From an uncultured Chloroflexia bacterium (GTDB lineage: Bacteria; Chloroflexota; Ktedonobacteria; Ktedonobacterales; JADMIN01): DNA of 32,000 nt. Location of the stretch: assembly GCA_963718915.1 (NCBI GenBank), contig CAVRAI010000007.1:60001-92000 (forward strand), written 5' to 3'. The position numbers and the translations under genes are program-made. The notes under the pieces were generated by a model that was not told the origin of the DNA, did not search any database, and worked only from the letters and a program-made list of their open reading frames with translations. Shown piece after piece: positions 731 to 24,427 of this stretch. Positions within the stretch are counted from its first letter, which is position 1, and every line of letters begins with the position of its first letter.

Positions 731-767
731 AAGCGCCAACCCTGGGCCGAGCGCGCTCCTCGCCATG

Positions 768-773
768 TATAAT
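768..773 (+). promoter_or_regulatory. Candidate -10 hexamer (TATAAT) upstream of the cytidylyltransferase gene
   Basis: A perfect TATAAT lies in the 116-nt intergenic gap, about 74 nt before ATG 847. No convincing -35 is present. Confidence 0.25.
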
Positions 774-846
774 GGGAAGCTGAAGCGCGAGGCGGCTGGC
801 CTCTCACAATGGCGGCAGCGCACATGAGAAGTTGCAAAGGATCAGC

Positions 847-1305: not shown

Positions 1306-1438
1306 GGAGTGGGGCAGCGGTAGTATAGTGGCACAGAGCATCGCGGCTCTCGATTGCCAGCATATCCTCAGTGCGTATACCCGGATGAACCAGGTCTGTC
1401 TGGCAAAGTAGTTTCAGGTCGCAGGAGGAAGATGACTC

Positions 1439-2236
1439 ATGTGCTTCGATGTTGACTCACAGCCACCGATTGCGCCGCACCACGGTCTGCCAGTGCGCAC
1501 CGAAGAGCTGGTGCTTTCGGCTTCTGACGGTACCCGCTTCAATGCCTTCGCCGCGCATAGCGATTCTACCACGCCATCCGGCGCCGCAATCGTCGTCATG
1601 CCAGACGTGCGCGGCCTGTTTTCGTTCTATCGCGCGCTTGCCCAGCGTTTCGCCGAGGCAGGCGTCGACGCCGTCGCGATTGACTACTTTGGCCGTACCG
1701 CTGGGCTTGATCCGCGCGAGGATTCCTTTGACTATATGCCGCATGTCATGCAGACCACACCGAAAACCGTCAGCATGGATGTCGCCTCAGGCGTTGCCTA
1801 TCTGCGCGGGATGCCAGGGAGCGGGTCGCGGGCAATCTTCACCGTCGGCTTTTGCTTCGGCGGCCATCATTCGTTCCTACAGGCCGCCAACCATCATGGC
1901 CTCGCGGGGGTAATTGGCTTCTATGGCTCGCCGATGCCTCGCCAGGGAGCGACGGTGGGACCGATTCAGCGAATCGATGAGTTCGAGTGCCCGGTGTTAG
2001 GCCTGTTCGGTGGTACAGACCAGAGCATTCCGCAAGACTCCATCAAAGCGTTCGATGAGGCGCTGACCAATGTGCATATCGAACACGAGCTCATTGTCTA
2101 TCCCAACGCGCCACACAGCTTCTTCGACCGCAAGCAGGAGGAGTTCCAGCAGGAATCGGCCGATGCGTGGCAGCAGATATTGCGGTTCATCGCCGCGCAT
2201 ACACCACAGTCGGGACAGGCGCCTGCTCAGGCGTGA
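1439..2236 (+). CDS. Dienelactone hydrolase family protein
   Basis: 265 aa. AGGAGGA at 1423-1429 lies 9 nt before the ATG. The DLH-like layout includes the GFCFGG nucleophile elbow (Cys type), a C-terminal YPNAPHSF His motif and VVMPDVRGL near the N-terminus. Confidence 0.8.
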   Translation: MCFDVDSQPPIAPHHGLPVRTEELVLSASDGTRFNAFAAHSDSTTPSGAAIVVMPDVRGLFSFYRALAQRFAEAGVDAVAIDYFGRTAGLDPREDSFDYMPHVMQTTPKTVSMDVASGVAYLRGMPGSGSRAIFTVGFCFGGHHSFLQAANHHGLAGVIGFYGSPMPRQGATVGPIQRIDEFECPVLGLFGGTDQSIPQDSIKAFDEALTNVHIEHELIVYPNAPHSFFDRKQEEFQQESADAWQQILRFIAAHTPQSGQAPAQA

Positions 2237-2623
2237 GCGCCGCTGGCGACTGATGTGCTTTTAGAAATTACGGGGGACATGCGTGGGGAAGCGCGGGCGG
2301 TTAAAACCGCGCCTCTGGGGCCTGCGGCCACGAAACCTGCCTCCGCAGGTTGCACCGATGCGCTCGCCAGCGGGTATACCGTTGGGACACACTCTGGGAG
2401 TCCGCCTACGCAGACTTGTGGCCACAGGCCCTTCAGGCGCGGTTTGTGAACTTTAAGCAATACCTCCGAACAGCGTGCTGGGATGGGTGTTCCGGAACCT
2501 GCCAGCGAATGGGCCAGAGAGGGCCGGGAAATTCGCCGTAGCGTTAACGCTACGGCTTGCTCACCCCACCACAATGCCCATGTCCGTCGCACATGCTAAA
2601 ACGACATTAACCGCCAGCCGATG
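2237..2623 (+). repeat. Composite array of hairpin-repeat modules, copy A of the dispersed element family
   Basis: A 387-nt gap between convergent genes with no credible ORF. It contains a perfect hairpin AACCTGC-ctcc-GCAGGTT (2334-2351) and GTGGCCacaggccCTTCAGGCGCGG (2418-2442). The core gcgaatggg..gggaaattcgCCGTAGCGttaaCGCTACGGc..ccccaccacaatg (2504-2576) matches the copies at 14009, 17453 and 22081. Confidence 0.6.
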
Positions 2624-3181
2624 CTACAATAGCCGTTCGACCTCGATCTCCGCCGGGAACCGCATGCGATCAGGCTCGCCGAGCCAGAAGAGCCGTTTGA
2701 GCGTCTCACCCGCGGCAAAGAGCAGGTGCTGCTCGGTCGTCTCTCTGGTTTCCGCGTAGGCCGAGGAGCCATCGTGAGTGCGCGTGCTGAGGAACCAGTC
2801 GCGCACCGGCGAGCCAATGGCGGCGCGTACCAGATAGCAGCGCATCTTGATTGCGCCCTGGCTTTCGGGCAGAAAGATACGTAACTGTGGCGCGCCCGTC
2901 ACGAGATCGAGCCGGTAGAACACCCCGAAATGTTCGCGCGAGGTCTGGAAGAGTGAAAGCTCGGCCTCGCCGCGTGCCTCCTCATCCACGGTTCCATCTC
3001 CTTCAAGCGCGAACGGCAAGATATCTTCCGCCTCCTGCTCCTCACCTGTCGGTGCGGGACGTCGAGGAGAATAGGGCATGCTGGTCGGCGGTGGCGGAGC
3101 GGGCGCCAGTTCTTCGGCGGGATCTTCCAGCACGACACCAAGCTGCGCCAACAGTTCCGCTAGTTGTTCGTCGAGTGTCAT
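2624..3181 (-). CDS. Hypothetical protein (acidic, Pro-rich N-terminal half)
   Basis: 185-aa ORF. GGGGAGG lies 6 nt upstream of the ATG on the minus strand. No family recognised. Confidence 0.55.
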   Translation of the reverse strand: MTLDEQLAELLAQLGVVLEDPAEELAPAPPPPTSMPYSPRRPAPTGEEQEAEDILPFALEGDGTVDEEARGEAELSLFQTSREHFGVFYRLDLVTGAPQLRIFLPESQGAIKMRCYLVRAAIGSPVRDWFLSTRTHDGSSAYAETRETTEQHLLFAAGETLKRLFWLGEPDRMRFPAEIEVERLL

Positions 3182-3363
3182 ACACTGCCTCCCCTGTGTG
3201 GGAATGAGAGATTAGGAAGTGAGAGAAGTAGGGTTGTGGTGATGCATTCTCTGGCGGTTGGCTCCAGTCGGAAAAAGATGCTGCAGGGGGAGCCGTTACG
3301 GGCCATTGGGGCAGTGAGTGATATACTGCACGCGACACCACATCATTTGGGAGGAACGAGCGC

Positions 3364-4196
3364 GTGGCTGATATGGACCAGGGCATCAAGCGACTGATCC
3401 AGACACATCCGGCAGACGTGCTGGCGCCGGCATTGCCAGGCGCGGAGCATTTGGGGGCGCTATCTACTGATATCGCTGCCGAGCCACAATTGATGCTGGA
3501 TACACTTCAGCGTATTCGTTACCAGGGTGTCGAGTGCGCTGCGAATATTGAAGCCGAGGCGCGTCCACGTCCAGATATGCCACGTCGATGCTTCGAATAT
3601 GGGGCGAGAGCAAGTATTATCCACAACTTGCCGGTCGTTTCTATCGTGACTCTGGCTCGAACCAGGCGGGGCTGTTCCAACGTCTCCATGCGTCGGACTT
3701 GCTAGCACGTGATGAGGTTGGCTTACTGCCGTTGATCGCGTTCACCGAAGATGGGAAGTCGATCGAGACCATCGAGGCGGCGGCCAATGCGGTCCAGGAA
3801 CGCGCATCAGCGAAGGACATGGCCGAACTGGAACTGCTGCTGGCGCTCTTCTCAGCACGAAATCTGGGGACAGGTCCCATCATGGGGCTGATACGGAGGC
3901 TGTTTATGAACCGTGAAATTCTGGAGGAGTCGCCTCTCTATCACTGGCTGATGCAGAAGGCTACCGAACAAGGTATGGCACAGGGTATGGCACAAGGCGA
4001 GGAACGTGGTCTGCGAGAAGCAGTGCTGATCATGTTACGTGGGCGCTTCGGGGAGCCTACCGCTGATGTAGTCCAGGCGATAGAGGCTGCCAGCCGCGAG
4101 CTGTTGAGCGCCATTCTGCTGAATACCGCGACTGATAGCCTGGCACAAGTCCGCGGGCGTCTTGGGCTTTCACAAGACGGACAGTCCCAGATATAA
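3364..4196 (+). pseudogene. Rpn-family recombination-promoting nuclease / putative transposase with DUF4351-like C-terminus; frameshifted and internally shortened
   Basis: Two overlapping ORFs lie in different frames (3364..3705 and 3588..4196). The first has the Rpn/YhgA-like N-terminus (GIKRLIQTHPADVL, LDTLQRI, NIEAEA, DMPRRCFEYGARASIIHNLPVVSIV). The second has the GLLPLIAF segment and a DUF4351-like tail (LEESPLYHWLMQKATEQG..GEERG..LRGRFGEP). The frame switch is at about 3650-3680, and roughly 25-30 codons seem missing relative to typical family members. Confidence 0.6.
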
Positions 4197-4207
4197 CCCC
4201 GGTATAG

Positions 4208-6158
4208 ATGCGGCACACAGGAGAGATGGATCGGGGCATGCGAGAGACACAGGCTGATGGCGCCGCTGAAATCGCCACTACTGCGCCATCGGCGGCATCT
4301 GCTGGCTCTGACGCGCCGGAGTCCCTTATCTTTGGCTGGCGCTGGGCGGATGCGCTGCTCGACTGGGCGTGGCGGCATCCTCGGCTCCCACTGGCGCTTG
4401 CCATGGTGGCGGGCATGCTGGCGCGGCTCGTTCTGGTCATGCGCTCGAACGCCCTGATCGACGGCGACGAGGCCATGGTTGGCATCCAGGCCGAGCGCAT
4501 CCTGCATGGCGAATTCCCTACGTATTTCTACGGCCAGGCCTACATGGGCAGCCTGGAAACCTACCTCATCGCCGCGCTCTTCCGCCTGTTCGGCCCCTCA
4601 GCCTGGGCAATGCGCGCCGTACCCATCCTGCTCTCGCCGCTGCTGGTCTACCTTACCTGGCGGCTGACGTATGCGCTGCTGCCGCGTCATTCGCGCGCCA
4701 CACCGCTGCTCGCCGGATTAGCCGCGTTCGTCGCCGCCGTCCCACCCCTCTACGACGCCGTAACCGAGTTGCGCACCTGGGGCGGGCAGATCGAGGTGTA
4801 TATCATCAGTCTCGCGCTGCTCCTCGCCACCGTCGAACTGGCGCGGCGGCTACGCGAAGGGGCGGGCGGCGCCGAACTGGCGCGGCGCTGGGCCATCTGG
4901 GGATTCCTAGCGGGGCTGGGCATCTGGGTCAATCCCCTGATTGTTTACGCGCTTATCACCGCCGTCCTCTGGCTGGTGTTTCCCTACGCGCACCGGGCGT
5001 TTCCTGGACTACTGGCGCGGTTGCGCAGGAACGGCGATACACACCCTGAGACGCCCGCCGCTATCCAACCAGCGCGCGCCGCGACCATCCTCGCGGTGGT
5101 TCCGGGGCTGCTCGTCGGCGGATTGCCCGCGTGGCTCTATGCGCTGAGCCACTCTGGCGAAAACCTGCTGGTCTACCTCACCCAGCCTGCCGTTAGCCCC
5201 GCCGTTAGTGGCGCCGCGCGGCAGGGGCGGCTCGTGCTGGCGGGGGCGATCACGACGCACTACGCGGGCTGTATCGCGCCGCAAGTCTTCAACGGCATGA
5301 TGCCCGCTGAGCCGCTGCTCTACTGGCTGCCGCTCCGCCTGCTGTTGCTTCTGCCGCCGCTGGCTGGCATCCTCTGCGCCGTCTGGCTCCTGCGCCGCGC
5401 GAACGATGGCGCGGGCTGGCAGGTGCGCGGAGGGCTGCCGCTACTCTTTGCCGCCGTCATCACCGCCGTCTTCTGCCTGGGTACTTCAGCCTGGGCCGCC
5501 TCGAAGAACTGCGAGTACGATCTCGCCGGACGCTACGCCGTGCCGCTGGTGCTGGTCGAGCCGTTCCTGCTGCTGGCGCTCTTGCGCTGCCGCTCGCGTG
5601 GCCCACGGTGGACGGTTGCTGCGCCGTCCCGCGCTGCCGCTGAATGGGCAGGCGCTGGCGCGTGGCTGGCGGATCGCACTGCTGGCGCTGGTGCTTGGCG
5701 GCGCCATCCAGTTCGGCACGTATTTCGTCTCGGACATGCAGGCGGCGTTCCAGTCGCCGTTCTATCGCTACATTCGCCAGGATCAGAGCCAGCTCTATGG
5801 CTATCTCAAGACGCACGATATTCATTATGCCTGGTGCAATCACTGGCTCGGCAACATTGTCACCTTCCGCACCGACGGCGAGACGGTCTGCGCCGACTAC
5901 TACGATCAGGTGGTCAAGGGCGGGATTCAGCGACCGCCGGGCACGCTTCAAACCGTGAGCCAGGCCGACCGCCCCAGCTTCATCATCGCGCGCGTCAATC
6001 CGCATCCGATCCTTGCACAGGAGCTTGATGCCCAGGGCATCTCATACACGATCGTGGTGCTACCTCAGGCGGGCGTCACGATCATCACCCCGGCGCGCAC
6101 GGTAGACCCCGCGACGGTCATCGCTGGCCTCGCGCAGGACTACGGCGCGAACCAGTGA
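4208..6158 (+). pseudogene. GT-C / GT39-like (ArnT/PMT-type) polytopic membrane glycosyltransferase, reading frame broken near 5575-5645
   Basis: ORFs 4208..6028 and 5406..6158 are in different frames. The first ~455 aa are multi-TM with the loop motif IDGDEAMVGIQAERILHGEFPTYFYGQ typical of GT39-like enzymes. After about 5580 that frame decays into Arg/Ala-rich junk. The other frame reads protein-like (GAIQFGTYFVSDMQAAFQSPFYRYIRQDQSQLYGYLKTHDIHYAWCNHWLGNIVTF...) up to the stop at 6158. Confidence 0.6.
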
Positions 6159-7088: not shown

Positions 7089-8723
7089 ATGGCGAACACG
7101 ACGAGCGCAAAGAATGCCAGGAAAACGACCAGGCGATCAACGGCTAAGAAAGCGCCCTGGTACGTCTCAACCACCATCCCATACGTCAACGCCAATCCGC
7201 ATATCGGCCACGCGCTGGAGTATGTGCTGACCGACGCGCTGGCCCGCTACCATCGGCGTGTCGGGGACGATGTCTTTTTTCTGACCGGTACCGACGAGAA
7301 CGCGCTGACTAACGTCCAGAGCGCTGAACGCCTGGGCATCCCCGTAGCGGAGCTGGTCGAGCGCAACTCGACGCGTTTCCGCGAGCTGGCCGAGACGCTC
7401 GAAACGTCATTCGACGATTTCATCCGCACCAGCGCCGACCCGCGTCATACTCCCGGCGTCCACCGGCTGTGGGAGGCGTGCGTCCGGAGCGGTGATATCT
7501 ACAAGCGCCACTATCACGGGCTGTACTGCGTCCGCTGCGAATTGTTCTATCGCGAGGATGAGCTGGTGGATGGCCTCTGCCCGATTCACCATATCCCACC
7601 CGAGGAGGTCGAGGAGGAGAACTACTTCTTCCGCCTCTCACGCTACGCCGACCAACTGGAGCAATTGATCGCCTCAGATACGCTGCGGGTTGTGCCAGAG
7701 ACGCGCAAGAATGAGGTGCTCAGCTTCATTCGTCGCGGTCTGGAAGACTTCAGCGTCTCGCGCTCACGTGAACGCGCACACGGCTGGGGCGTTCCGGTGC
7801 CGGGCGATCCCGCGCAGGTGATCTACGTCTGGTACGACGCACTGGGCAACTACATCACCGCGCTGGGCTACGCCGACGATGGCCCGCTCTACCAGCGCTA
7901 CTGGCAGGAGAATCCCCGGCGTCTGCACGTTTTGGGGAAGGATGTCATCCGCTTCCATGCCGTCTACTGGCCCGCGATGCTGCTTTCGGCGCAGGTTCCG
8001 CTGCCGACGACGGTGCTGGTGCATGGCTTTATCACCAGCGGCGGCCAGAAGATGAGCAAGTCGCTCGGCAACGTGGTGGATCCCGCGCGGATTGCGGCGG
8101 ACTACGGCGTCGAACCGCTGCGCTACTTCCTCTTGCGCGAGATCAGCCCGTTTACCGATAGCGACTTCACGCTGGAGCGGTTTCTGCGCGCCTGTAATAC
8201 CGACCTGGCCGACCAGCTTGGCAATCTGCTCAACCGCACCATCAGCATGCTCCAGCGCTACACCGATGGCGTGATTCCCGCGTCCGGCCCGTTGACGTCC
8301 GCCGAGCAATCGCTCATCGCGCGGGCGCAAGCGCTCCCCGGCCTGGTGGATGTCGCCGTGCGGGCGTACTCGTCGAACGAGGCGCTGGCGGCCATCTGGG
8401 ATCTGATCGGGACGGCGAACCGCTACGTGGCCGAGACGGAGCCGTGGGCGCTGGCGAAGGCGCGCAAAGCGGGCGACGAGGAGGCGGCTCGGCGACTGGA
8501 TACCGCGCTCTACACGCTGGCGGAAACGCTGCGACTGGTGGCGCAGCTACTCGTGCCGTTCCTGCCGGGGACCGCCACAAAGATCGCCGCGCAACTGGGC
8601 ATCGCGCTAGACGACAGCGCACTGTGGGCCGATGTCGCCGTCTGGGGTCAGCTTCCGGCGGGGACGCGAGTCCAGCCTGGCCCACTGCTCTTCCGCAAGT
8701 GGGAGATAGTGGATGAAGCGTGA
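7089..8723 (+). CDS. metG: Methionine--tRNA ligase (class I aaRS)
   Basis: 544 aa. It has the HIGH motif (NANPHIGHALE), the KMSKS motif (GGQKMSKSLGN), WYDALGNYITALGY, a Cys-containing CP knuckle (CVRCELFY..LCPIH) and a short basic N-terminal extension. Confidence 0.93.
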   Translation: MANTTSAKNARKTTRRSTAKKAPWYVSTTIPYVNANPHIGHALEYVLTDALARYHRRVGDDVFFLTGTDENALTNVQSAERLGIPVAELVERNSTRFRELAETLETSFDDFIRTSADPRHTPGVHRLWEACVRSGDIYKRHYHGLYCVRCELFYREDELVDGLCPIHHIPPEEVEEENYFFRLSRYADQLEQLIASDTLRVVPETRKNEVLSFIRRGLEDFSVSRSRERAHGWGVPVPGDPAQVIYVWYDALGNYITALGYADDGPLYQRYWQENPRRLHVLGKDVIRFHAVYWPAMLLSAQVPLPTTVLVHGFITSGGQKMSKSLGNVVDPARIAADYGVEPLRYFLLREISPFTDSDFTLERFLRACNTDLADQLGNLLNRTISMLQRYTDGVIPASGPLTSAEQSLIARAQALPGLVDVAVRAYSSNEALAAIWDLIGTANRYVAETEPWALAKARKAGDEEAARRLDTALYTLAETLRLVAQLLVPFLPGTATKIAAQLGIALDDSALWADVAVWGQLPAGTRVQPGPLLFRKWEIVDEA

Positions 8724-9007
8724 CAGAGGTGCTACGCCATACGTATGATGATGTATCGATGCGATAGAGATTGAGGCGCATACTGAGAGAGTGTGCGCCC
8801 ATGCTCATGGTGTTCGTGACGTTGGCGGGACAGCATTTCACTCGCATGCATCCTCATCCACGGCTTCGCGTCAGCGATAAGGACATCTCACCAACGTCCC
8901 GGCACACTGCTCCATCGCTTCATGCCGCCTCGTCGCGCCCGCCGGCTCGATATTCACTCCGCGACGCTCAACCCCTGGCCAGTTGCTCACAAGGAGGATC
9001 CTTCACC

Positions 9008-12000
9008 ATGTCACTCAGCGGCAAACTTGAAACCTGGCGTAATGATCTCATTGATATGAGCCGCCGGAATCCGATGCTCTATTACAAGAGTGAAGGCTAT
9101 CGCGCCGCGGGCATTCAATTCCTTCCTGAAAGTCCAAGCGCGCTGTTTGCGCAACTCCGCGGTCGTCCTGGCACTGTTGCCCTCAGTGAGATCCCTTGCG
9201 CGCTCTCACCAGAAGACCTGGAACGACGTCCACTGAGCCTCAGGCTGCTCCGACTCTACCTGCGGGTGCGTGAGGATGAGCGGGATCGCGGCATCAGAAC
9301 CCTCTATCTGGCGTTTGGGGTGCTTGAATGGTATGAATCCCCATCCAGTCAGGAGGCGATACATTCACCGCTCATCTTCCTGCCGGTAAAGCTGGAGTAC
9401 AAACGGGCGACAGATTCTTTCACATTGAAATTTGTCGAAGACATCGAATGCGAAATCAATCCGACGTTACGTGAATATCTGAATTATGGATTCAAGATTA
9501 CTCTGCCCACCTTCAGCGAAGTGATCTCTGATGACCCTGATGTCCCGGTGACGCTTGACGCCATCTTGCGGGGAATCGGGGAGGCGCTGCCACAGCAGGG
9601 CGGGTCGCTTCAGGATGAACGCTGGACTATTCATCCTGAGGTACATCTTGGCAGGTTCGCTTTCCAAAAACTGGTGATGTATCAGGATTTGCGGCGCCAT
9701 GCCTCCGAGGTTCTAGCGCATCCTCTCCTTCAGGTATTGGGCGGTGAGGCGGTTCTGCCAGCGCCCACTTCCTGGTTGCCATCACCACGCGAGTTTGATG
9801 ACAACATTCATCCACAACGTGTCCTGGAGATTCTTGACGCCGATTCCAGCCAGCAGGAGGCTATCCAATGGGCCAAGGCTGATGTCAGTTTTGTGCTGAA
9901 GGGTCCGCCAGGAACCGGGAAGAGTCAGACCATCGCCAACATCATCGCGGTGACATTGGGGCAGGGGAAGAAGGTGCTCTTCGTCAGCGAAAAGATGGCC
10001 GCGCTCGATGTCGTGCGCACGCGACTTCAGCAAGTGGGCCTCGGCGATTTCTGCCTTGACCTTCACAGTTCACAGACAGACTCCGCGCAGAAGTCAGCGT
10101 TCTTCAACGCGCTTAAAACCTCGCTCGACGATGTTTCGCGACCACCAGAAGAGCGCAGTGACGGTAGTTGGGCGCTCCAGTCGTCGAACCTGGAGCGACA
10201 GCGCAGGGAACTGAACAGTTACGTGAGGGAATTGCACCAACCGCGCCAGCCGCTGGGGAAATCAGCATTCTGGGCATACGCCGAACTTGCCAGACTCGCC
10301 GACGCCCCTGACTTTGACTTTGCGATCCCAAACGTTGATGCGATAACTCCGGATCAGTTCGACGCGAAGCTACGGACAATCAACGCGCTTGATGCCTGTC
10401 GCGATGTGCTGGACACCTACGAAACGCATCCCTGGCGCGAGACGCGGGCCACGAGCCATTCACTGGAATTAGAATCGAACATTCGCGACCATTACACGCG
10501 CCTCTCGGCCAACCTGCGCACGCTGCATGACGCGCTTGCCGCGATGGTCAAACTGCTCGGAGAACACGCCGCCATTAATTTCGCCTGGATGGACTTTATT
10601 GTACGGCATGCGGAGGTGGTGTTGGAGAGTCCACTCCCGCTGGGCGCGTGGCTCAGCCGTGAAGAACTGGCGCGGCTCCGACCACAGGTGGCGGATATGG
10701 TTGCGCGGTCGCGGGAATATTTAGCGTGGATCGCTCAATTCACACCGGTATACAACCGCGCGTTGCTCGCCGAAGATCTGACGACGTTGCAAGAGTCGCT
10801 CAGCGAGGAAAACGCCCAGAAGATAGCCAGCCTGCGTGACGAGATGGAATCGCCCCGCGATACCGCGATTGCGCAGCATGACGAACTCGATAAGCGCCTC
10901 ACGGCTGCGAGCCGCGCACTGGCGGCCATTCCGCCAGTGGCCAATACCCTGGCGGAACTGTGCGGCGCTGAGCAACCAGAGACGTTAGGCGAGACGAAAG
11001 GATTGATCGCGCTTGCACGCCATCTCTCGCAGTCTCCCAATCCGCCATCTGAGTGGCTGAATCCATCGAAATTTGCTGTCGTGCGCGCGCTAGCGGCTGA
11101 AGCGCGGGAGCGCTATTGGCAGTGCGCGCAATTACGCGGCGCGCTGGAAGGTGTCTATCAGCCTCAGTTCTTCACACTCGATCTGCATGGTATGGCGGAG
11201 CGCTTCCGCACACAGTATCGCTCGTTTTTCCGTTTCTTGCAGACATCGTATCGTCGCGACATCAAGATGGCGCGCTCGCTCCTGCTGCCAGGACAGACGC
11301 GCACAGCGGCGCAGGTTGAGGCAGATCTGTATCAGGCTGTCAAGCTGCTCGATATGGAGGCGGGGCTAAACGAGAAACGGGTTGACTATGCGCAGACACT
11401 GGATCACTATTTCGATGGCGCGCAGACTGACTGGGAGCAGGTGACTGCTGCCCTACGCTGGGTGACGCAGCTTCACGAGTACCTGGCGGGTATTCCTGTT
11501 TCGTCGGCGATGGCTGCCCTGATAACTGGGCCAGCGAAAGCGTTGCGGGCCATGAACGCCACGCTTGATACACTCGCGCAACTGGTTGCGGCATGGGCGG
11601 ATGAGGAATCCTATTGTGTCAGTCGCGTGTGGGTTTCACGGCTTCTTCCTGGCATCATTATGTTCGATGATGCGGCGCCTGAGCAGGCGTGCGTGGCGCT
11701 TGATGCGCTTCTCAGTGACCTGCGGATATTCTGGCAGGCCGTTGACACCGTTCAACGCCACCGTCATATGCCCCCAGAGCCACACCAGCCTATGTCCTGG
11801 GTGAGCCTCCGCGCTGACGTAGCGCTCGCGCGAGCGATTCAAGCGTTCGAGACGCGCCTGACGGAGAAGGCCGACGAGTATTCCAGCGATTTCGGACGCT
11901 ACTTTACAGGTGTGACGACCAATTGGCAGGCCATTGATGACGCGCTGGCGTGGACAGAGCGTTTCCTGACTCACTACGCTGATCGCGCCGTGCCAGAGCC

Positions 12001-14092
12001 AACCCTGGCGCTCGTCACCGATCCCGAGAATACTGTCGGGCGTGATGAACTTCGCCAGGCGCTTACCATGCTCCAGCAGACGTGGCCACACATGGACGCG
12101 GAACTGACGTTCAGTGATACCGTCCTGGCGCGAACAGCGCTCAATAAGCCTGGGAAGACCTTCGAAACCACTCCCCTTGTGACCCTGGCTGATCATGTTG
12201 ATTTCCATCTGCGCGAACTTCCCGCGTTGCATCGTTGGCTCACCTGCCAGCAACGCCTACACCACTGTGGACAGGTTGGCCTGGACGGTTTCATCGCAAG
12301 CCTGATGCGTCACGGCCCGATTCCCCAGAACCTCGCGGCGATCTTCCAGCGCCGATTCTACAAGCTCTGGCTCGATCATGTGCGTAGCCAGTCGCCAACT
12401 CTCGCCCGCTTCCGGGGCGAGGAGCACTCAGTCGCGATTGACCGTTTCCGCAATCTGGACGCTGGTCATCTGACACTCGCCAGAAGGCGTTTGAACGCTT
12501 TACTGCGGCAACGCCGTCGCCATGCCTTTCAAAGCTCAGCGGGTAAACGCGCCGTGGCGCTCTCGCAGGCGGATCGTGCGCTGCGCCGAGAAGCGCAGAA
12601 GAAACGCCATAGCCCTATACGGGTGACTGTGCGAAAGGCCGCGCGCGCATTGCTCGAACTGAAGCCATGCTGGATGATGAGTCCGCTCAGCGTAAGCCTG
12701 TTTCTCGATTCGGCGGAGCAACTCTTCGACCTGGTCATTTTTGACGAAGCGTCTCAGGTCTGCCCGGAAGACAGCATCTCAGCCATCTTGCGCGGGAAGC
12801 AGCTCATCGTGGTGGGTGATCCAAGGCAGCTTCCGCCGACGCGCTTCTTCTCGAAATCACTGGCCGATGAAAGTGGTGATGAGGATGAGGAAGACGAGGA
12901 GAACGAGCAAAAAGAGCGTACTCAGAGTATCCTGGATGAGTGTCGCGCGTCATCGTTCAACGAGCGCAGCCTCGAGTGGCATTATCGCAGCGCCGACGAA
13001 GCGTTGATCGCGTTCTCCAATCACCACTTTTACGATGATCAGTTGGTGACTTTCCCCAGCCCGCTTGGCGCCACTGGGCAGGGTGTGCGCTTCGAGTACG
13101 TTGAGAACAGCAATTACCGGCGCGGACGAAACACCAACGAGGCCGCGCGAGTGGCGGACATTGTCTTCGATCACCTGCAACAGCATGAAGACCCCTCACT
13201 TGGCATCGTAGCGCTGAGCGCCGCCCAGCAGGAAGCCATCACCGAGGCGCTCGAAAACCGTATCAAGCGCGACCCACGGCTGGAGCCGTATTTTGATGCG
13301 CTGTTTATTGGCAAACCCGATGGCATCTTCATTAAGAATCTGGAAAGCGTCCAGGGCGATGAACGCGACACCATCATTCTGAGCGTGGGGTATGGACCAG
13401 ATGTTGATGGCAACATCTATAAACGCTTTGGTCCAGTCAATAATGCGGGCGGCGAGCGTCGTCTCAATGTCGCGGTGACACGCGCGCGCAAACAGATGAT
13501 CGTCGTCAGCTCTATGCGGGCAAGCGACTTGCCACCTCATATGGCCTCGCTCGGCGCTCGCACCCTGCGTGACTATCTGCTCTATGCGGAGGCGTGCTCG
13601 AATGGCGGCGCGCAAGCCGGGAGGCAGGCGCTTTCCGAGCAGTCTACAGCGAGCGACGAACGAGCCATGCGCCTGACGGAGTCGCGATTTGAGTCACCTT
13701 TCGAGGAGGCTGTCTACAACGCATTAACCGCTCGTGGTCTGATGCTCGATACACAGGTGGGCTGTTCAAGATACCGGATCGATCTGGCAGTGCGCGACCC
13801 AGAGCATCCCGGCGCCTATCTGCTGGGTATCGAGTGTGATGGCGCATCGTACCACTCGTCGAAGACCGCGCGCGACCGCGATCGCCTCCGTCAGTGGCAA
13901 CTGGAACACATGGGCTGGAAGCTGCACCGTATCTGGTCGAGCGACTGGTTTGCCACGCCAACTGTTGAGGTGTTGCGTGTTCTGGATGCCGTGGCTGAGA
14001 TTATGAATAGGCGAGCGGGCGGGGAAATTCGCCGTGGCCTTCAGGCTACGGTGGGCGCTCCCAACGACGACGATATTCAGGATGAAGCGTGA
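9008..14092 (+). CDS. Giant DUF4011-like / Upf1-DNA2-type SF1 helicase / Vsr-DUF559-like endonuclease fusion protein (1694 aa)
   Basis: The ORF-track ORF is 8771..14092. I trim it to ATG 9008, 9 nt after AAGGAGGA (8991-8998).
- N-terminus: LETWRNDLIDMSRRNPMLYY...YLAFGVLEW...LGRFAFQKLVMYQDL.
- Walker A: GPPGTGKSQT (from nt 9901).
- Motif II: IFDEASQV (DEASQ at nt 12743-12757).
- Other helicase motifs: VVGDPRQLPPT, WHYRS, QGDERD, LNVAVTRAR.
- C-terminal PD-(D/E)XK-like module: YRIDLAV...LGIECDGASYHSS...RIWSSDWF. Confidence 0.85.
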   Translation: MSLSGKLETWRNDLIDMSRRNPMLYYKSEGYRAAGIQFLPESPSALFAQLRGRPGTVALSEIPCALSPEDLERRPLSLRLLRLYLRVREDERDRGIRTLYLAFGVLEWYESPSSQEAIHSPLIFLPVKLEYKRATDSFTLKFVEDIECEINPTLREYLNYGFKITLPTFSEVISDDPDVPVTLDAILRGIGEALPQQGGSLQDERWTIHPEVHLGRFAFQKLVMYQDLRRHASEVLAHPLLQVLGGEAVLPAPTSWLPSPREFDDNIHPQRVLEILDADSSQQEAIQWAKADVSFVLKGPPGTGKSQTIANIIAVTLGQGKKVLFVSEKMAALDVVRTRLQQVGLGDFCLDLHSSQTDSAQKSAFFNALKTSLDDVSRPPEERSDGSWALQSSNLERQRRELNSYVRELHQPRQPLGKSAFWAYAELARLADAPDFDFAIPNVDAITPDQFDAKLRTINALDACRDVLDTYETHPWRETRATSHSLELESNIRDHYTRLSANLRTLHDALAAMVKLLGEHAAINFAWMDFIVRHAEVVLESPLPLGAWLSREELARLRPQVADMVARSREYLAWIAQFTPVYNRALLAEDLTTLQESLSEENAQKIASLRDEMESPRDTAIAQHDELDKRLTAASRALAAIPPVANTLAELCGAEQPETLGETKGLIALARHLSQSPNPPSEWLNPSKFAVVRALAAEARERYWQCAQLRGALEGVYQPQFFTLDLHGMAERFRTQYRSFFRFLQTSYRRDIKMARSLLLPGQTRTAAQVEADLYQAVKLLDMEAGLNEKRVDYAQTLDHYFDGAQTDWEQVTAALRWVTQLHEYLAGIPVSSAMAALITGPAKALRAMNATLDTLAQLVAAWADEESYCVSRVWVSRLLPGIIMFDDAAPEQACVALDALLSDLRIFWQAVDTVQRHRHMPPEPHQPMSWVSLRADVALARAIQAFETRLTEKADEYSSDFGRYFTGVTTNWQAIDDALAWTERFLTHYADRAVPEPTLALVTDPENTVGRDELRQALTMLQQTWPHMDAELTFSDTVLARTALNKPGKTFETTPLVTLADHVDFHLRELPALHRWLTCQQRLHHCGQVGLDGFIASLMRHGPIPQNLAAIFQRRFYKLWLDHVRSQSPTLARFRGEEHSVAIDRFRNLDAGHLTLARRRLNALLRQRRRHAFQSSAGKRAVALSQADRALRREAQKKRHSPIRVTVRKAARALLELKPCWMMSPLSVSLFLDSAEQLFDLVIFDEASQVCPEDSISAILRGKQLIVVGDPRQLPPTRFFSKSLADESGDEDEEDEENEQKERTQSILDECRASSFNERSLEWHYRSADEALIAFSNHHFYDDQLVTFPSPLGATGQGVRFEYVENSNYRRGRNTNEAARVADIVFDHLQQHEDPSLGIVALSAAQQEAITEALENRIKRDPRLEPYFDALFIGKPDGIFIKNLESVQGDERDTIILSVGYGPDVDGNIYKRFGPVNNAGGERRLNVAVTRARKQMIVVSSMRASDLPPHMASLGARTLRDYLLYAEACSNGGAQAGRQALSEQSTASDERAMRLTESRFESPFEEAVYNALTARGLMLDTQVGCSRYRIDLAVRDPEHPGAYLLGIECDGASYHSSKTARDRDRLRQWQLEHMGWKLHRIWSSDWFATPTVEVLRVLDAVAEIMNRRAGGEIRRGLQATVGAPNDDDIQDEA
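14009..14073 (+). repeat. Dispersed hairpin repeat, copy B (right half only), embedded in the 3' end of the helicase ORF
   Basis: aggcgagc..ggggaaattcgCCGTGGCCttcaGGCTACGGtgggcgctcccaacgacgacga matches copies C and D. The hairpin is at 14032-14051. Confidence 0.7.
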
Positions 14093-14231
14093 GTTTCACC
14101 GGGCGAAAATCCGCCTGCTTTGGCAGTATGGTACGGTGTTTGCTATAACTGCATTGTAGGCAGGCGGCGCCATTCGTCTACTCGTGGCATGTGACGACCG
14201 GCACAATAGTCATAGGCGGGCCGCGCATTTA

Positions 14232-14260
14232 TTGACGGCAAAGCGCCTGTGCGGTATTCT
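14232..14260 (+). promoter_or_regulatory. Candidate sigma-70-type promoter for the kinase gene (TTGACG-17 nt-TATTCT)
   Basis: -35 TTGACG at 14232-14237, an exact 17-nt spacer, and -10 TATTCT at 14255-14260. It lies about 115 nt upstream of GTG 14377. Confidence 0.35.
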
Positions 14261-14376
14261 GATGGCGCAGCACGGCATTGGAAAATAGCGGAGTAGTACG
14301 CTCTGCACGGGCAATGCACGGGTGACGCATGAGCGATGAGCGATGCTCCGGTGTTGCGTGGATGAAGGAGTAGGAC

Positions 14377-16206
14377 GTGCCGCAGGCTCCCGCAAAAAGC
14401 GCACTTGCTCCCGGAACGATCATTCGAAATAACTATCGCATCGAGGAACTGATTGGGAGCGGCGGCTACGCGAATGTCTATCGCGCCACTGAACTCACCT
14501 TCGGCTATGAGCGTGCGATCAAAGAAGTGATTGACCCGGATCCCGGTGTTCGCATGCAGTTCCAGCTTGAAGCTCGCCTGCTTATTGACACCAAGCATCC
14601 TAATATTCCCCGTGGCTACTATATCCTCGATGATAAAGGACGCATGTATCTCATCATGGAGTACGTGCATGGCAAAGACCTCGAAGAAATTCTCAATGAT
14701 AGCCTGAAAACGCACCGGCAGCCACTCGACGAGAAACAGGTGCTCCAGTGGGCGATTGCCGTCTGCGACGCGCTGACCGAGATGCATTCACTCAAAACGC
14801 CCATCATTCACAGGGATATCAAGCCAGCGAATATCAAGATCACTCCGGATGGACGGCCGGTGCTGATTGACTTCGGACTGGCGAAGCTGCACAAGGAGAA
14901 CAAGAATACCCAGGCCGCCGCCCAGGGCGTCTCGCCGGGTTTCGCTCCACCAGAACAATACATGGCCAAAGGCAGGACCGACGCGCGTACCGATGTCTAT
15001 GGCCTGGGCGCAACGCTCTACGCCTGCCTGACCGGCCGCGACGCCCCCGAGGCGCCCGCCCGCCTGCTCGCCCAGACGGGGGCCACTAGCCAGGGCGCCG
15101 ATCTCAAACCCATCCGGTTCTACAACCCACAGGTCAGCGAAGCGACCGAGCGCGTCGTCAAGAAAGCGCTGGAGCTTTCGCCGCAGCAGCGCCAGCAAAC
15201 CGCCGCTGATTTGCAGCGCGAGTTGCAGACTGCCCTCAAGGGTGGCAAGGCTGGGCCAGCCACGCTGGATATGGGACCGGTCTGCGCGAAATGTGGCATG
15301 CAAAATCGCCCTGGGCTGCTGAATTGCGCCAACTGTGGCGCACCTCTCAACGCGGCAGGTGACTCCCTCTCGCGTGGCGCGGGGAAACGCCCGAAGATCG
15401 CCTCACCAGCGGCCTCGAACGCGCGTGGCACTGCGCAGATGCCCGCGATGGCGTCGCCGCCCGTGGCGCATCCGCTGGCCGACGATCAGCGCACCAAAGG
15501 GACTCTTATCGCGGCGCAGCAGCGCAGTTCCAACAAACACCCCGCCGTCTCGCCGACCGCCGCGCGCGGCACTGGCAAACAGCCAGCGGTGTCAAATATG
15601 CCGACGCCATCGATCCTCAACTATCCTGGCAGTGGCACGGCGACAGATATCGCGGGGAACAACGCCCTCGCGCCACGTGTTGCCCCCACTCCCGCCAATC
15701 CCCCGAAGGTGGTCAACCGGGCGACTGGCGCGCCGAGCGCGGTGGGATCGTCGTCGGCGGTGAAGTCCTCCTGGATCAGAGTTGGCACGACGGCTCTGGG
15801 TGGGCCAGGCAAAGTGGTGCTGGCATTTGGCTTCGTCGAGACTCTCTGGGGAGCGCTTATCATCGCGCTGGGCGTGGTGATGGCGGTGACCAGGGGGAAT
15901 AACTTCCCCATCGTCACGTTCGTTGGCGCATGGCTCATCATCGTGGTGCTGGCCAGCCTGATTGGCGGTCACGCGATCAGTCGGCCGGTCTTCCGTCGCA
16001 AGCGGGTGAGCGGATTCAGGCGCGGCCTACAGGCTTTCGGCCTGCTCCTCTACTCAGTCGTGGTGCATGCCGTCGCGATCTGGGGCGTTACGACCTATTC
16101 CAATCTGCAGAGTGGCGCCACCGTCGCTATCATCGCGTTCATCGCCTTCGGTCTGAACGTGTTGGTCATCGGTATCTTCACGATGCTCAATATGCTCAAC
16201 AACTGA
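14377..16206 (+). CDS. Hanks-type Ser/Thr protein kinase with zinc ribbon, low-complexity linker and C-terminal 4-TM module
   Basis: GTG start 6 nt after AAGGAG (14365-14370). Kinase motifs are GSGGYANVY, AIKEV, HRDIKPANI (HRD at 14809-14817), DFGLAK and SPGFAPPE. The zinc ribbon is CAKCG..x..CANCG (15283-15336). A Pro/Ala/Ser-rich linker follows, then about four hydrophobic helices (about 15770-16200). Confidence 0.88.
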   Translation: MPQAPAKSALAPGTIIRNNYRIEELIGSGGYANVYRATELTFGYERAIKEVIDPDPGVRMQFQLEARLLIDTKHPNIPRGYYILDDKGRMYLIMEYVHGKDLEEILNDSLKTHRQPLDEKQVLQWAIAVCDALTEMHSLKTPIIHRDIKPANIKITPDGRPVLIDFGLAKLHKENKNTQAAAQGVSPGFAPPEQYMAKGRTDARTDVYGLGATLYACLTGRDAPEAPARLLAQTGATSQGADLKPIRFYNPQVSEATERVVKKALELSPQQRQQTAADLQRELQTALKGGKAGPATLDMGPVCAKCGMQNRPGLLNCANCGAPLNAAGDSLSRGAGKRPKIASPAASNARGTAQMPAMASPPVAHPLADDQRTKGTLIAAQQRSSNKHPAVSPTAARGTGKQPAVSNMPTPSILNYPGSGTATDIAGNNALAPRVAPTPANPPKVVNRATGAPSAVGSSSAVKSSWIRVGTTALGGPGKVVLAFGFVETLWGALIIALGVVMAVTRGNNFPIVTFVGAWLIIVVLASLIGGHAISRPVFRRKRVSGFRRGLQAFGLLLYSVVVHAVAIWGVTTYSNLQSGATVAIIAFIAFGLNVLVIGIFTMLNMLNN

Positions 16207-17685: not shown

Positions 17686-20367
17686 ATGGATACCTATCTC
17701 CTGGCGACCAAACTGCGCATTCCTCCCTCCCCACATCATCGGGTGCGGCGCGCCCGGCTCGTTGACGCGCTCGATCAGGGTATCCCACGCTACAAGCTCA
17801 CAGTGATCTCCGCCCCGGCTGGCTATGGCAAAACAACCCTGTTGGCCGACTGGGCGCATGCCAGTCCTCTGCCAATGGTCTGGCTCTCGGTGAGCGAAGA
17901 AGACAACGACCCTGAGCGCTTCTTCCGCTATCTGGCGACGGGGTGGGAACAGGTACGGCCAGACATCAGCGAAAGCCCGCTCGGCCTGCTGCTCGGCGCG
18001 GTGATGTCGGAGCGTGAGGCGATCCTGGCCGCGTTCATCAACGCCGCCGCCACCGTGCCCGATCACCTGGTCTTTCTCCTCGACGACTATCACCTGATCG
18101 AGGATCCTTCCATCCATCAGGCGCTGACCTTCCTGCTCGACCACCTGCCGCCAACCGTCCACGTGCTGCTGGCGGGCCGCACCGAACCGCCGCTGCCGCT
18201 GGCCCGCTATCGTGCTCGCCACGAACTGCTGGAGTTGCGGGCGGATGATTTGCAGTTCTCACTAGAGGAGACAGACGATTTCTTGAACCAGCTAATGCGG
18301 CTCGATTTCACGCGGGATGAGCTTGCGTCGCTGCATATGCGGCTGGAAGGCTGGATCGCCGGTCTGCAACTGGTGGCGCTCAGTCGCCAGCGCCGCCACG
18401 CCACGACAGATACGCTGATCATCAGCGGCAGGCAGCGCTTCATCGCCGACTATCTGAGTGAGAATGTGCTTGCCCAGCTACCAACTAGTACGCAGCGATT
18501 CCTGCTCCAGTCTGGCATACTGGATCGCATGTGCGGCTCGCTATGTGACGCCGTCACCGAGGGGCAAGACAGCCAGGCGATGCTGGAAACGCTGGAGCGT
18601 GAGAACCTGTTTCTCGTCGCCCTGGATGACCAGCGCGAGTGGTTCCGCTATCACGTCCTCTTCGCCGACTTTCTCCGCGAGGCGTTGAAACGGCGTTATC
18701 CTGAGGATGTAGTTCCGCTGCATCGCCGCGCCGCGCGATGGTATCTGGCGCATGATCTGCCTGAGCCAGCTTTCCAGCATGCGGTCGCTGGCGAAGACGA
18801 AGACCTTGTGATTCAGATTTTCGAGCGCTACTTCTTCCTGAAGCTGTTGAGCGGCGAGATTGCCGTCGTACAGCGGTGGCTCGCGGCGCTTCCGGCGGCG
18901 TGGGAGGCAAGCCACGTGCAGTTGAGCCTCTTCCGGGCGAATGTGCTGTTCTTCACCGGGCAAATAGAACCGTTTGTGCGCGATCTCGATGCGCTGGAAC
19001 GCCGGGTGCGCGCGGCGGCGGGTGAGGATGCGCGTTTACATCTGGCGCGCGTGACCGCGATGCGCTGCTTCGTCGCCTGTTATAACAACGACGTCGTGCC
19101 AGCGGAGACGTTGGCCTACCAGGCGCTCCAGGATTTGCCCGAAGAGGAAATTGACCTGCGGCAGGGGCTGAATGGCTCGCTCGGCGATCTCTACCGCCAG
19201 AATGGACGCTGGCAGGAAGCGCGCGCATGCTATCTGAAAGCGCTTGACCGGACACTCAATGACCCCCAGAAAGAGGCGTTTCGGATTCAGTCTGTCGAGG
19301 CGTTGGGCGCGCTGGCCGACCTCGATCTGCGGCAGGGGCGCCTTCGGGACGCCGCGACCTGGTGGCGGCGCGCTCTAGACGTGATCGGCGAGCGGGACGG
19401 CCGGAGCGGCTTCCCGCTGCCCCTCATCGGTTGGGTGTATATCCGCCTGGGCGAGATTCTCTATGAGTGGAACCAGTTGAGCGAGGCCGAGAACGACCTC
19501 TCGCGCGGGCTGCAACGCGCTGCGTTGGGCGGCGATGTGCGCGGGATGATCGCTGGCTATCTGCTGGCCGCCCGTCTGAAATTGGCGTCGGGCGACATCA
19601 CCGCCGCTGGTGAGCATTTGGAGCACGCGCGTCCCCTGGTGGAGCATGCCGCGTTCCCCGATTGGGCTGGCCGCTTTGGGCGCCTGGAGGTGGAGTATCT
19701 GCTGGCGCGTCAGAGGATTCTGGCCGCCGTTGAGCGGGCCGAGGCGATGATGCGGAGCGATGACCTCGAAGGGGGCGCTGAAAGCGAGGTTGCGCGGCTG
19801 GCGCTGGCTCGCGCGCTGATCGTGCAGAGCGATAACGAGTCCCTTACACGAGCGCTGGCGCTGCTCAAGCGCCTATTGCCGCTGGCGAGCGACGAGGGGC
19901 GGGCAGGCGTCGCCGCCGAGGCGCTGGCGCTTCAGTCCCTCGCCCACTGGCGGCGCGGCGAAGAGGCGCAGGCGTTGACGATTCTGGAGCGCGCCCTGCG
20001 TCTGGCCGAACCCGAAGGTTATGCGCGTCTCTTCGCCGATTTGGGTCTGCCAATGGCCCGCCTGCTGCAGAAGGCCCATTCCCGCGAGGTGATGCGTGAC
20101 TATGTCGAGCGCCTACTGACGATATGTGCGAGCGACCTCGCCAGCTCCATCGCTCAGCGCGGCACACTGCCAGAGCCGCTCAGCCTGCGCGAACAGGAGG
20201 TGCTGCGCCTGATGGCCGCCGGGCTGACCAATCGAGAAATCGCCGAAACGCTCGTCATCTCGCCGGAAACCGTCAAAAAGCATACTGGCAGCATCTATGG
20301 AAAACTGAGCGTGGGCAACCGCACCGAAGCTGCGGCCAGGGCCAGAGCGCTGAACCTGCTCGACTGA
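17686..20367 (+). CDS. MalT-like STAND ATPase / LuxR-family transcriptional regulator
   Basis: 893 aa. The N-terminus is LATKLRIPP..., Walker A is SAPAGYGKTT and Walker B is LVFLLDDYH. A long TPR-like helical region follows. The C-terminal LuxR HTH is LSLREQEVLRLMAAGLTNREIAETLVISPETVKKHTGSIYGKL. Confidence 0.88.
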   Translation: MDTYLLATKLRIPPSPHHRVRRARLVDALDQGIPRYKLTVISAPAGYGKTTLLADWAHASPLPMVWLSVSEEDNDPERFFRYLATGWEQVRPDISESPLGLLLGAVMSEREAILAAFINAAATVPDHLVFLLDDYHLIEDPSIHQALTFLLDHLPPTVHVLLAGRTEPPLPLARYRARHELLELRADDLQFSLEETDDFLNQLMRLDFTRDELASLHMRLEGWIAGLQLVALSRQRRHATTDTLIISGRQRFIADYLSENVLAQLPTSTQRFLLQSGILDRMCGSLCDAVTEGQDSQAMLETLERENLFLVALDDQREWFRYHVLFADFLREALKRRYPEDVVPLHRRAARWYLAHDLPEPAFQHAVAGEDEDLVIQIFERYFFLKLLSGEIAVVQRWLAALPAAWEASHVQLSLFRANVLFFTGQIEPFVRDLDALERRVRAAAGEDARLHLARVTAMRCFVACYNNDVVPAETLAYQALQDLPEEEIDLRQGLNGSLGDLYRQNGRWQEARACYLKALDRTLNDPQKEAFRIQSVEALGALADLDLRQGRLRDAATWWRRALDVIGERDGRSGFPLPLIGWVYIRLGEILYEWNQLSEAENDLSRGLQRAALGGDVRGMIAGYLLAARLKLASGDITAAGEHLEHARPLVEHAAFPDWAGRFGRLEVEYLLARQRILAAVERAEAMMRSDDLEGGAESEVARLALARALIVQSDNESLTRALALLKRLLPLASDEGRAGVAAEALALQSLAHWRRGEEAQALTILERALRLAEPEGYARLFADLGLPMARLLQKAHSREVMRDYVERLLTICASDLASSIAQRGTLPEPLSLREQEVLRLMAAGLTNREIAETLVISPETVKKHTGSIYGKLSVGNRTEAAARARALNLLD

Positions 20368-24094: not shown

Positions 24095-24354
24095 CGTGTC
24101 CTGCCAGTTCCAGGGTATTCACGTCCCTGTGGTGTAAGTCTAGTCCGAACAGGGGCGTCGCTCAAAGGGAATTGGCCCATATTTCTGCGATTTCTCGCAT
24201 CGCATATACGCAATTGGCCGCAAAAGGTGGCAACCGGCAGGGGCGACGACGCCTATCTGTGAAGTAGCGAACGGTATGCATTCGCGCCAGGATCGCACCA
24301 GGATAGAGTAGGGTCGGATCAATATGGGAACGGACGGAGAAGAGGGGGATGAGG

Positions 24355-24427
<73 letters not shown>

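Follow-up and report, generated by a model that had tools for sequence, protein, structure and literature searches.

A divergent DUF4011 helicase-nuclease of the Hhe/ProA superfamily, a candidate single-protein defence gene, in a fixed chromosomal slot of a Ktedonobacterales bacterium

Hhe is a single-gene system in which a DUF4011 helicase is combined with a Vsr nuclease and which acts on phages lambda, T3, T7 and PhiV-1 (Gao et al. 2020). Its anti-phage effect is abolished by the Vsr-domain mutation E1731A, T7 genes of DNA metabolism behave like triggers of the system, and several counter-defence genes of phages are known. Anantharaman et al. (2013) were the first to describe the MTES_1575 branch of Vsr-like nucleases, fused to superfamily 1 (SF1) helicases and to winged helix-turn-helix (wHTH)/DUF3320 domains. 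In PADLOC, the systems labelled PDC are 145 candidates nominated by their embedding in BREX, DISARM or type I restriction-modification operons. The gene considered here lies at 9008-14092 on the forward strand of a 32,000-nucleotide (nt) stretch of an uncultured Ktedonobacterales bacterium (Chloroflexota; contig CAVRAI010000007.1, positions 60,001 to 92,000), hereafter the window. Judged by profile matches, its product is a new, divergent member of the Hhe/ProA superfamily of the PADLOC PDC-S37 type. With reasonable confidence it is read as a functional, stand-alone helicase-nuclease, most likely serving as a single protein to defend against phages or other DNA invaders.

The defence reading is based on a strong homology of the protein to defence families, some of them validated and others candidates. 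The best PADLOC match of the window protein is the candidate PDC-S37 with 1263.1 bits (E = 0), which is a hidden Markov model score and not a formal PADLOC system call, and the PADLOC model of Hhe gives 573 bits. The top NCBIfam model is 'anti-phage protein ProA' (NF058533), with 1194.2 bits in 4 stretches, short of its cut-off of 1500; the model 'DUF4011 domain-containing anti-phage protein Hhe' (NF042953) gives 842.3 bits and likewise stays under its cut-off of 2000. With the PDC-S37 model, a genuine ProA obtains 1183 bits and other relatives 1252-1580. Since this model spans ProA from end to end and scores the window protein higher, it can be regarded as a broad ProA-like superfamily model with the window protein inside. 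The superfamily is very large, comprising more than 7228 proteins at E <= 1e-10. The proposal of a candidate single-protein helicase-nuclease immunity factor, made in a preliminary description from the DNA letters, is supported at the family level by the PDC-S37, Hhe and ProA matches. The same description held that the fold and the C-terminal place of the nuclease differ from those of described systems, which is not the case: the same combination is already present in Hhe and ProA, and the predicted architecture opens no new category of system.

The gene, its putative expression signals and its domains are listed below (aa, amino acids; all on the forward strand).

8720..8749, forward: candidate sigma-70-like promoter GTGACA-18-TATGAT, 10/12 consensus matches
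8991..8998, forward: putative Shine-Dalgarno sequence AAGGAGGA, read from the sequence, 9 nt 5' of ATG 9008
9008..14092, forward: coding sequence of the 1694-aa DUF4011 / superfamily 1B (SF1B) helicase / MTES_1575 nuclease (Hhe/ProA superfamily, PADLOC PDC-S37 type), from profile searches and homologue N-termini
9008..9817, forward: N-terminal alpha/beta domain, aa1-270, with DUF4011 at nt 9047-9481 (Pfam, AlphaFold2 model)
9800..10078, forward: first half of RecA1 with Walker A GPPGTGKS at aa299-306, nt 9902-9925 (Pfam, IGHMBP2 match at aa265-344, AlphaFold2)
10082..12661, forward: all-alpha insert splitting RecA1, aa~359-1218, ~860 aa (DSSP of the AlphaFold2 model)
10463..11248, forward: tandem duplication A, a helical module at aa~486-612 and aa~621-747 (hhalign, probability 99.2%, E 1e-19)
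11246..12220, forward: tandem duplication B, a helical module at aa~747-905 and aa~907-1071 (hhalign, probability 99.6%, E 3e-24)
12662..12862, forward: second half of RecA1 with motif II FDEASQ at aa1245 and motif III GDPRQLPPT at aa1270 (Pfam, invariant columns)
12872..12916, forward: acidic loop SGDEDEEDEENEQKE at aa1289 (sequence, clade consensus)
12959..13513, forward: RecA2 (AAA_12) with QGDERD as motif V and VAVTRAR as motif VI (Pfam, Upf1 match at aa1236-1509)
13700..13990, forward: Vsr-like PD-(D/E)XK nuclease REase_MTES_1575 (Pfam, invariant D1592, E1609, D1611 and H1616)

The open reading frame (ORF) runs for 5085 uninterrupted nt (1694 aa) from ATG 9008 to a stop ending at 14092. 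The in-frame stretch opens at 8771, and ATG 9008 is the likely start because it is preceded by AAGGAGGA and because 40 homologues start at the same position, sharing the initial methionine in an alignment with the consensus MxLxxKLxxW. The promoter candidate at 8720-8749 is a consensus match only, in a scan that returned 4 sites against 2.4 expected in shuffles, and it begins at the final bases of the methionyl-tRNA synthetase (MetRS) gene, whose stop is at 8723.

As judged by predicted domains and residues, the catalytic machinery is intact. All the helicase motifs and the nuclease residues D1592, E1609, D1611 and H1616 are invariant in the 41 homologues, which together with the profile matches lies far beyond chance. 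By Pfam, DUF4011 (PF13195) covers aa14-158 (E 3.5e-24), AAA_19 and AAA_30 fall over the Walker A region (~aa280-340), AAA_11 has its best stretch at aa1232-1278 (motifs II-III) plus a second piece, and AAA_12 covers aa1318-1502, with QGDERD at aa1449 and VAVTRAR at aa1488. The Walker A motif GPPGTGKSQT begins at aa299 (nt 9902) with G299-T308 invariant, and motif II FDEASQ at aa1245 (nt 12740) with D1246, E1247, A1248, S1249 and Q1250 invariant. The nuclease model REase_MTES_1575 is covered in full by aa1565-1661 (E 3.9e-35) and includes RIDLAV at aa1590, ECDGASYH at aa1609 and RIWSSDWF at aa1641. DUF559 proper gave a non-significant match to the window protein in Pfam (E 0.077), so the nuclease can be assigned to the MTES_1575 branch of the Vsr-like fold. 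The acidic loop keeps its place across the family and not its letters: the clade consensus is KSLADxxDDDD, and ProA has NDTDDDTEEDME there. Most of what the preliminary description had read from the letters is borne out by these searches. Every motif it quoted for a complete Upf1-type helicase, the nuclease and the acidic run is present, its positions being correct within 1-3 nt (Walker A starts at nt 9902 instead of 9901, and nt 12743, given for FDEASQ, is that of its D). Its distance of about 945 aa between Walker A and motif II was measured as 946 aa, and Pfam profile searches recovered the N-terminal DUF4011, AAA_11 and AAA_12. Of its DUF559/Vsr-like nuclease, the Vsr-like fold stands and the DUF559 label does not.

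The segment between the two halves of RecA1 was modelled with AlphaFold2 over aa262-1300 (predicted local distance difference test, pLDDT, 84; predicted TM-score, pTM, 0.38). The model is wholly alpha-helical at aa~359-1218, in agreement with the earlier helical prediction, and consists of long helices, each locally confident; with a pTM of 0.38 the mutual arrangement of these helices, and so the geometry of any arm, is undefined. Profile-profile comparison (hhalign) of slices of the 41-sequence alignment demonstrated two tandem duplications of modules from which the insert is built, a feature new here. Both copies of duplication B bear a G..T[DN]W....L.W motif. The repeats were not detected when the insert was compared with itself by BLASTP, as opposed to the profile-profile comparison. 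Foldseek matches of the insert fold were limited to MukB, Smc, JetC and Rad50 (E 2e-4 to 5e-2, TM 0.05-0.11). An SMC-like coiled coil was not accepted, given TM values below 0.11 and tandem duplications instead of a symmetric hairpin. The weak matches are rather read, at the level of the models, as a shared topology of a P-loop head interrupted by long helices and not as homology. The AlphaFold check that the preliminary description had recommended for a coiled-coil or sensor arm gave long helices of undefined mutual arrangement. The model of aa1-270 was more confident (pLDDT 89.2, pTM 0.81), yet Foldseek found no match in the PDB better than E 0.27 for this DUF4011-containing domain. A known fold for DUF4011 is rejected for now, and by this method the domain is without a solved structural relative. 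A phmmer sequence search of the PDB found no structure of the Hhe/ProA type either.

The evolutionary behaviour of the gene is best seen against its closest relatives, the Ktedonobacterales metagenome-assembled genomes L001-L003, which have the whole neighbourhood in common with the window. Their flanking proteins are ~90% identical to those of the window, and the helicase-nuclease only ~64%. The excess divergence is confined to one segment:

8720..14200, strand not applicable: segment of locus-specific excess divergence, the gene plus the upstream intergenic region, a putative replaced allele (nucleotide identity, synonymous divergence, GC at third codon positions)

Nucleotide identity to L001 and L002 is 0.85-0.92 in the flanks and drops to 0.53-0.82 within this segment, with sharp edges. 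Synonymous divergence (dS) between the window allele and its orthologues is 1.30-1.33, compared with 0.46-0.55 in the flanks (ratio 2.8). The elevation is uniform along the gene, the conserved motor included, and the nonsynonymous divergence (dN) is 5.5 times the flank values. Among L001-L003 themselves, the dS of the gene (0.28-0.56) is similar to that of MetRS and the flanks (0.32-0.46), and a uniformly faster clock was therefore rejected as the cause of the divergence. The GC content at third codon positions (GC3) is 0.65 in the window allele, 0.70-0.73 in its orthologues and 0.70-0.81 in the flanking genes of the window. The raised dS with sharp edges, without a faster clock and with lower GC3, indicates that the resident copy was exchanged as a whole for a divergent allele of this gene, which is likewise new here, and the shift in GC3 suggests that this replacement took place in the lineage of the window. 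In line with the earlier mention of a lower-GC patch, the gene has 58.4% GC compared with 62.9% in the remainder of the window, and corresponds to the lowest-GC 5-kb stretch of the window, which begins at 8701.

The slot between MetRS (metG) and a Ser/Thr kinase gene is shared more widely. Two further metagenomic contigs hold the gene in the same MetRS-[gene]-kinase arrangement and a third, short contig appears to do so; at least four deeply divergent allele lineages, 57-68% identical among themselves, occupy the slot. The gene tree places the window allele equally far from L001-L003 and from the more distant genome L087. This conflicts with the flank tree, in which the window groups with L001-L003. 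Full-length orthologues are present in all the related genomes examined. Purifying selection acts throughout the gene: dN/dS is ~0.2 overall, 0.08-0.17 in the helicase core and nuclease (0.13-0.14 in windows of the nuclease domain) and 0.25-0.34 over the insert (~aa433-1030) and the linker between DUF4011 and the helicase. The insert is the most divergent portion of the gene, with dN of 0.30-0.44 over ~aa433-1030. More distant members of the clade (41-49% identity) stand alone in unrelated, mostly metabolic contexts, and these differing contexts across the wider Ktedonobacterales clade mean that there is no order-wide housekeeping synteny. Overall, the gene in the slot resembles in its behaviour an accessory allele that has been swapped. 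Housekeeping synteny away from defence islands, which the preliminary description had named as a sign against defence, was thus found among the nearest genomes and not across the wider clade, and is accompanied by this allele-swap behaviour.

At the window locus, the gene is solitary, as had been described. Upstream lie genes for a helix-turn-helix (HTH) protein, a cytidylyltransferase, a dienelactone hydrolase, a PMT_2-like membrane protein and MetRS; downstream are those for the Ser/Thr kinase, an aminotransferase, a MalT/LuxR-type regulator, an oxidoreductase, a D-Ala-D-Ala carboxypeptidase, tRNA-Phe, KsgA and others. PADLOC models gave no defence-specific hit among the neighbours in the window, only matches to the generic catalytic domain of the kinase and a weak HTH match. 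A signature of insertion by a mobile genetic element was rejected: checks of the window for repeats, insertion sequences (IS) and tRNA genes found no mobile-element hallmark near the gene, only short chance repeats flanking it, no IS and a sole tRNA 10 kb away.

Several neighbours were looked at individually. The kinase gene at 14377-16206 (forward, 609 aa) begins 285 nt past the helicase-nuclease stop and matches many PADLOC models of PD-T4-6, mad6 and MkoA (best 4e-59), in its generic kinase domain at aa14-290 only. As a PD-T4-6-type defence partner it was rejected on account of these generic-domain matches, its ~90% conservation and its ordinary dS in the syntenic genomes, and it is probably not a defence partner. 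An ORF at 14143-14787 (reverse, 214 aa), antisense to the kinase start and without family hits, is probably not a gene; its apparent conservation in L001 and L002 is due to the kinase coding sequence on the opposite strand. About 870 nt at 3336-4206 have no counterpart in L001 and L002, which are otherwise collinear and in which the flanks are ~30-40 nt apart. This small lineage-specific indel, in a region of low GC (0.576 at 3001-4000), contains an ORF at 3588-4196 (forward, 202 aa) with no Pfam or PADLOC match. The adjoining gene at 4208-6028 (forward) encodes a 606-aa protein with a weak match to PMT_2 (glycosyltransferase-like) and is the second most divergent of the syntenic block, with 71-76% identity and dN/dS of 0.24-0.28 compared with ~90% and ~0.1 in its neighbours. 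The MalT-like regulator at 17686-20367 (forward, 893 aa) has a P-loop/NACHT-like N-terminus, a MalT tetratricopeptide repeat region and a LuxR HTH domain; it is 79% identical in L001, and its weak PADLOC CARF3 matches are confined to the HTH. The tRNA-Phe(GAA) gene at 24353-24427 (reverse) is the sole RNA gene detected in the window; it adjoins a KsgA/RrnaAD methyltransferase gene (24511-25428, reverse). A beta-propeller protein of the virginiamycin B lyase family (Vgb_lyase, E 2.7e-96), encoded at 25499-26659 (forward), could be an antibiotic-resistance-type enzyme.

Across the superfamily, homologues occur on 557 plasmid records, 229 of them conjugative, and the phage collection contained only 1 contig with a near-full-length homologue. 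A genuine ProA gene is carried by the conjugative IncFIB/IncFII plasmid pM63-1 (locus L081, 4396-12446), where it lies beside a gene with an AbiJ-NTD4 domain, set between IS1, IS3 and Tn3 elements. PLSDB labels this gene just 'DUF3320 domain-containing protein', and the same DUF3320 label is attached to the top ones among the matches listed for the 244 Klebsiella plasmid records with homologues. Among 134 neighbours of 13 diverse homologues, strong PADLOC matches were obtained to SoFic (two), AbiU, PDC-S11, PDC-S48, PDC-S04 and PDC-S24, and further to components of MADS and a CARF protein. The question raised earlier, whether homologues lie beside defence genes, can therefore be answered in part: such neighbours were found in this survey and none at the window locus, and the association is suggestive only. 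About 5 kb from one of the homologues (P0017), at 744-4742 (reverse) of locus L083, another helicase-nuclease was observed, a 1332-aa fusion of Peptidase_M78, a domain of the ImmA/IrrE protease type, with a UvrD helicase and PDDEXK_1; it adjoins a DUF87/TrwB-like ATPase and is possibly in a mobile-element or defence context.

Several points weigh against a defence role. The assays of phage resistance concern Hhe of E. coli only, and not the present clade; PDC-S37 is a candidate system only; and the window protein stays below both NCBIfam equivalog cut-offs. Five other diverse relatives do so as well, from which it follows that the ProA and Hhe models are narrow islands in a very large superfamily. 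The window does not form a defence island, and the neighbouring genes are all housekeeping or metabolic. The neighbour survey has no control set and its kinase-type matches are generic. Positive selection was not seen, dN/dS being below 0.35 everywhere along the gene. Finally, a DUF4011 gene is a core gene of P. aeruginosa, present in every isolate, so not every member need be accessory. A first alternative is a housekeeping function in genome maintenance or nucleic-acid surveillance, acting for instance on stalled forks, R-loops or damaged DNA, with the likeness to Hhe and ProA reduced to shared enzymology. The solitary position between housekeeping genes, with flanks that recur in at least five related genomes, the purifying selection, the P. 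aeruginosa core gene and the nearest solved helicases (Upf1, IGHMBP2 and Sen1, all cellular surveillance enzymes) fit such a function. A housekeeping gene should, however, diverge together with its neighbours, and here dS and dN are 2.8 and 5.5 times those of the flanks, with sharp edges and a shifted GC3; moreover, the gene tree conflicts with the flank tree, the wider clade lacks conserved synteny, the family is common on plasmids and its characterised members are anti-phage. We consider a housekeeping role unlikely.

A narrower form of the defence reading would have the protein act mainly against plasmids and conjugative elements, or in competition between mobile elements, instead of against lytic phages. 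It draws on the genuine ProA of conjugative IncF Klebsiella plasmids, located amid transposases, on the many plasmid-borne and conjugative homologues and on the single contig from the phage collection. As opposed to this, NCBIfam calls both reference families anti-phage, and the window copy is chromosomal with no mobile-element hallmark found nearby; such a mainly anti-plasmid role seems quite improbable to us. That the gene is an inactive relic, a horizontally acquired copy in decay, could be proposed from its GC below that of the surroundings and from a protein evolving faster than the flanks. It is hardly tenable in view of the unbroken 5085-nt ORF with its Shine-Dalgarno sequence, the invariance of all catalytic motifs, the full-length orthologues in all related genomes examined and the selection analysis, which largely refutes it (dN/dS ~0.2 overall and 0.08-0.17 in the catalytic domains).

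Returning to the favoured reading of a single-protein defence factor, the enzyme would work as an autonomous sensor-effector. By analogy with Hhe, the Upf1-type SF1B motor would load on and track along nucleic-acid intermediates of phage or mobile-element replication; DUF4011 together with the ~860-aa helical insert of duplicated modules might be the sensing or autoinhibitory part; and, upon activation, the C-terminal Vsr-like PD-(D/E)XK domain would cut DNA. The defence role in this host, as well as the substrate, polarity and trigger and the sensor role of the insert, are what we infer from the whole of the analysis. A more far-reaching idea, possible in our opinion and rather doubtful, is that the metG-kinase slot serves as a dedicated immune locus, hypervariable and consisting of a single gene. 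Deeply divergent alleles of the Hhe/ProA type would be kept in it or exchanged between species, by trans-species polymorphism or cassette swapping, and target specificity would reside in the fast-evolving insert of duplicated modules, acting as a sensor or gating arm which splits the motor in a topology recalling SMC/Rad50. If so, the alleles of this clade would form a natural series with which invader recognition by a single-protein helicase-nuclease could be mapped, and which could help to locate the determinants of specificity. For specialists, the chief value of the locus is evolutionary: it lies outside a defence island, yet behaves like an immunity gene in a fixed slot, and methods based on defence-island enrichment would miss 'solo' loci of this kind.

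In comparison with named systems, Mokosh, Nhi and Hna share with the window protein the logic of an SF1 helicase plus a nuclease and are much further from it than Hhe and ProA. The preliminary description had cited Nhi, Mokosh type II and Hna as described examples of this logic; the profile matches to Mokosh are confined to the generic helicase core (PADLOC MkoA 117 bits, MkoC 90 bits), the PADLOC model of Nhi is not significant for the window protein (E 0.048), and neither a phospholipase D (PLD) nor an Nhi-type nuclease was found in it with Pfam and PADLOC profiles. The Upf1-like SF1B helicases (Upf1, IGHMBP2 and Sen1/SETX) have the motifs of the helicase core in common with it. They include the nearest solved structures by sequence (phmmer against the PDB, E 9e-13 to 1e-3: IGHMBP2 8.7e-13, Upf1 3.3e-08, Sen1 2.2e-06), and the IGHMBP2 family model TIGR00376 of NCBIfam matches as well (E 1.8e-26). 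As opposed to the window protein, these enzymes of eukaryotic RNA/DNA surveillance have neither DUF4011 nor a fused Vsr-like nuclease, and their RecA1 is without the ~860-aa insert.

Hhe is closer: it too unites a DUF4011 helicase and a C-terminal Vsr-like nuclease in one protein. Its NCBIfam model aligns with aa93-1664 of the window protein collinearly and in one stretch, which implies that Hhe has a long insert too, and E1731 of Hhe would correspond to E1609 here. Compared through profile models, Hhe is nevertheless more distant from the window protein than ProA and PDC-S37 are. PDC-S37 has the same single-gene organisation without a conserved partner gene; around the window gene and its relatives, the neighbours vary from one clade member to another, and MetRS and the kinase, which flank the shared slot, evolve at ordinary rates. 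Its match falls into 3 stretches, and the last ~200 model positions (the DUF3320 part) remain unmatched by the window protein; moreover, PDC systems were nominated from embedded loci, and the window gene is neither within nor beside such a system.

ProA, known here through the NCBIfam model alone, was represented by the 1963-aa protein WP_200995691.1 of the Klebsiella pneumoniae plasmid pM63-1, which scores 2225 bits over the full ProA model. It shares with the window protein DUF4011, the SF1 helicase interrupted by a helical insert, the acidic loop that follows motif III and the MTES_1575 nuclease, with 31% identity over aa5-441, 35% over aa934-1648 and identical catalytic motifs. The two differ at both ends and in the middle. 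ProA has an N-terminal extension of ~365 aa which the window protein is without, so that DUF4011 starts at aa375 in ProA and at aa14 here, and BLASTP pairs aa5 of the window protein with aa367 of ProA. At the other end, ProA has a C-terminal DUF3320 (wHTH) at aa1820-1868; by Pfam, DUF3320 (PF11784) has no match in the window protein, in which just 33 residues follow the nuclease domain. Between the two alignable parts, the window protein has ~490 aa (aa442-933) compared with ~190 aa in ProA, an insert ~300 aa longer, with no detectable similarity. The ProA reference is plasmid-borne and the window gene chromosomal. The Hhe/ProA-type family is thereby extended to a clade of Chloroflexota (Ktedonobacterales) in which the terminal regions of ProA are missing and the insert is expanded and internally duplicated.

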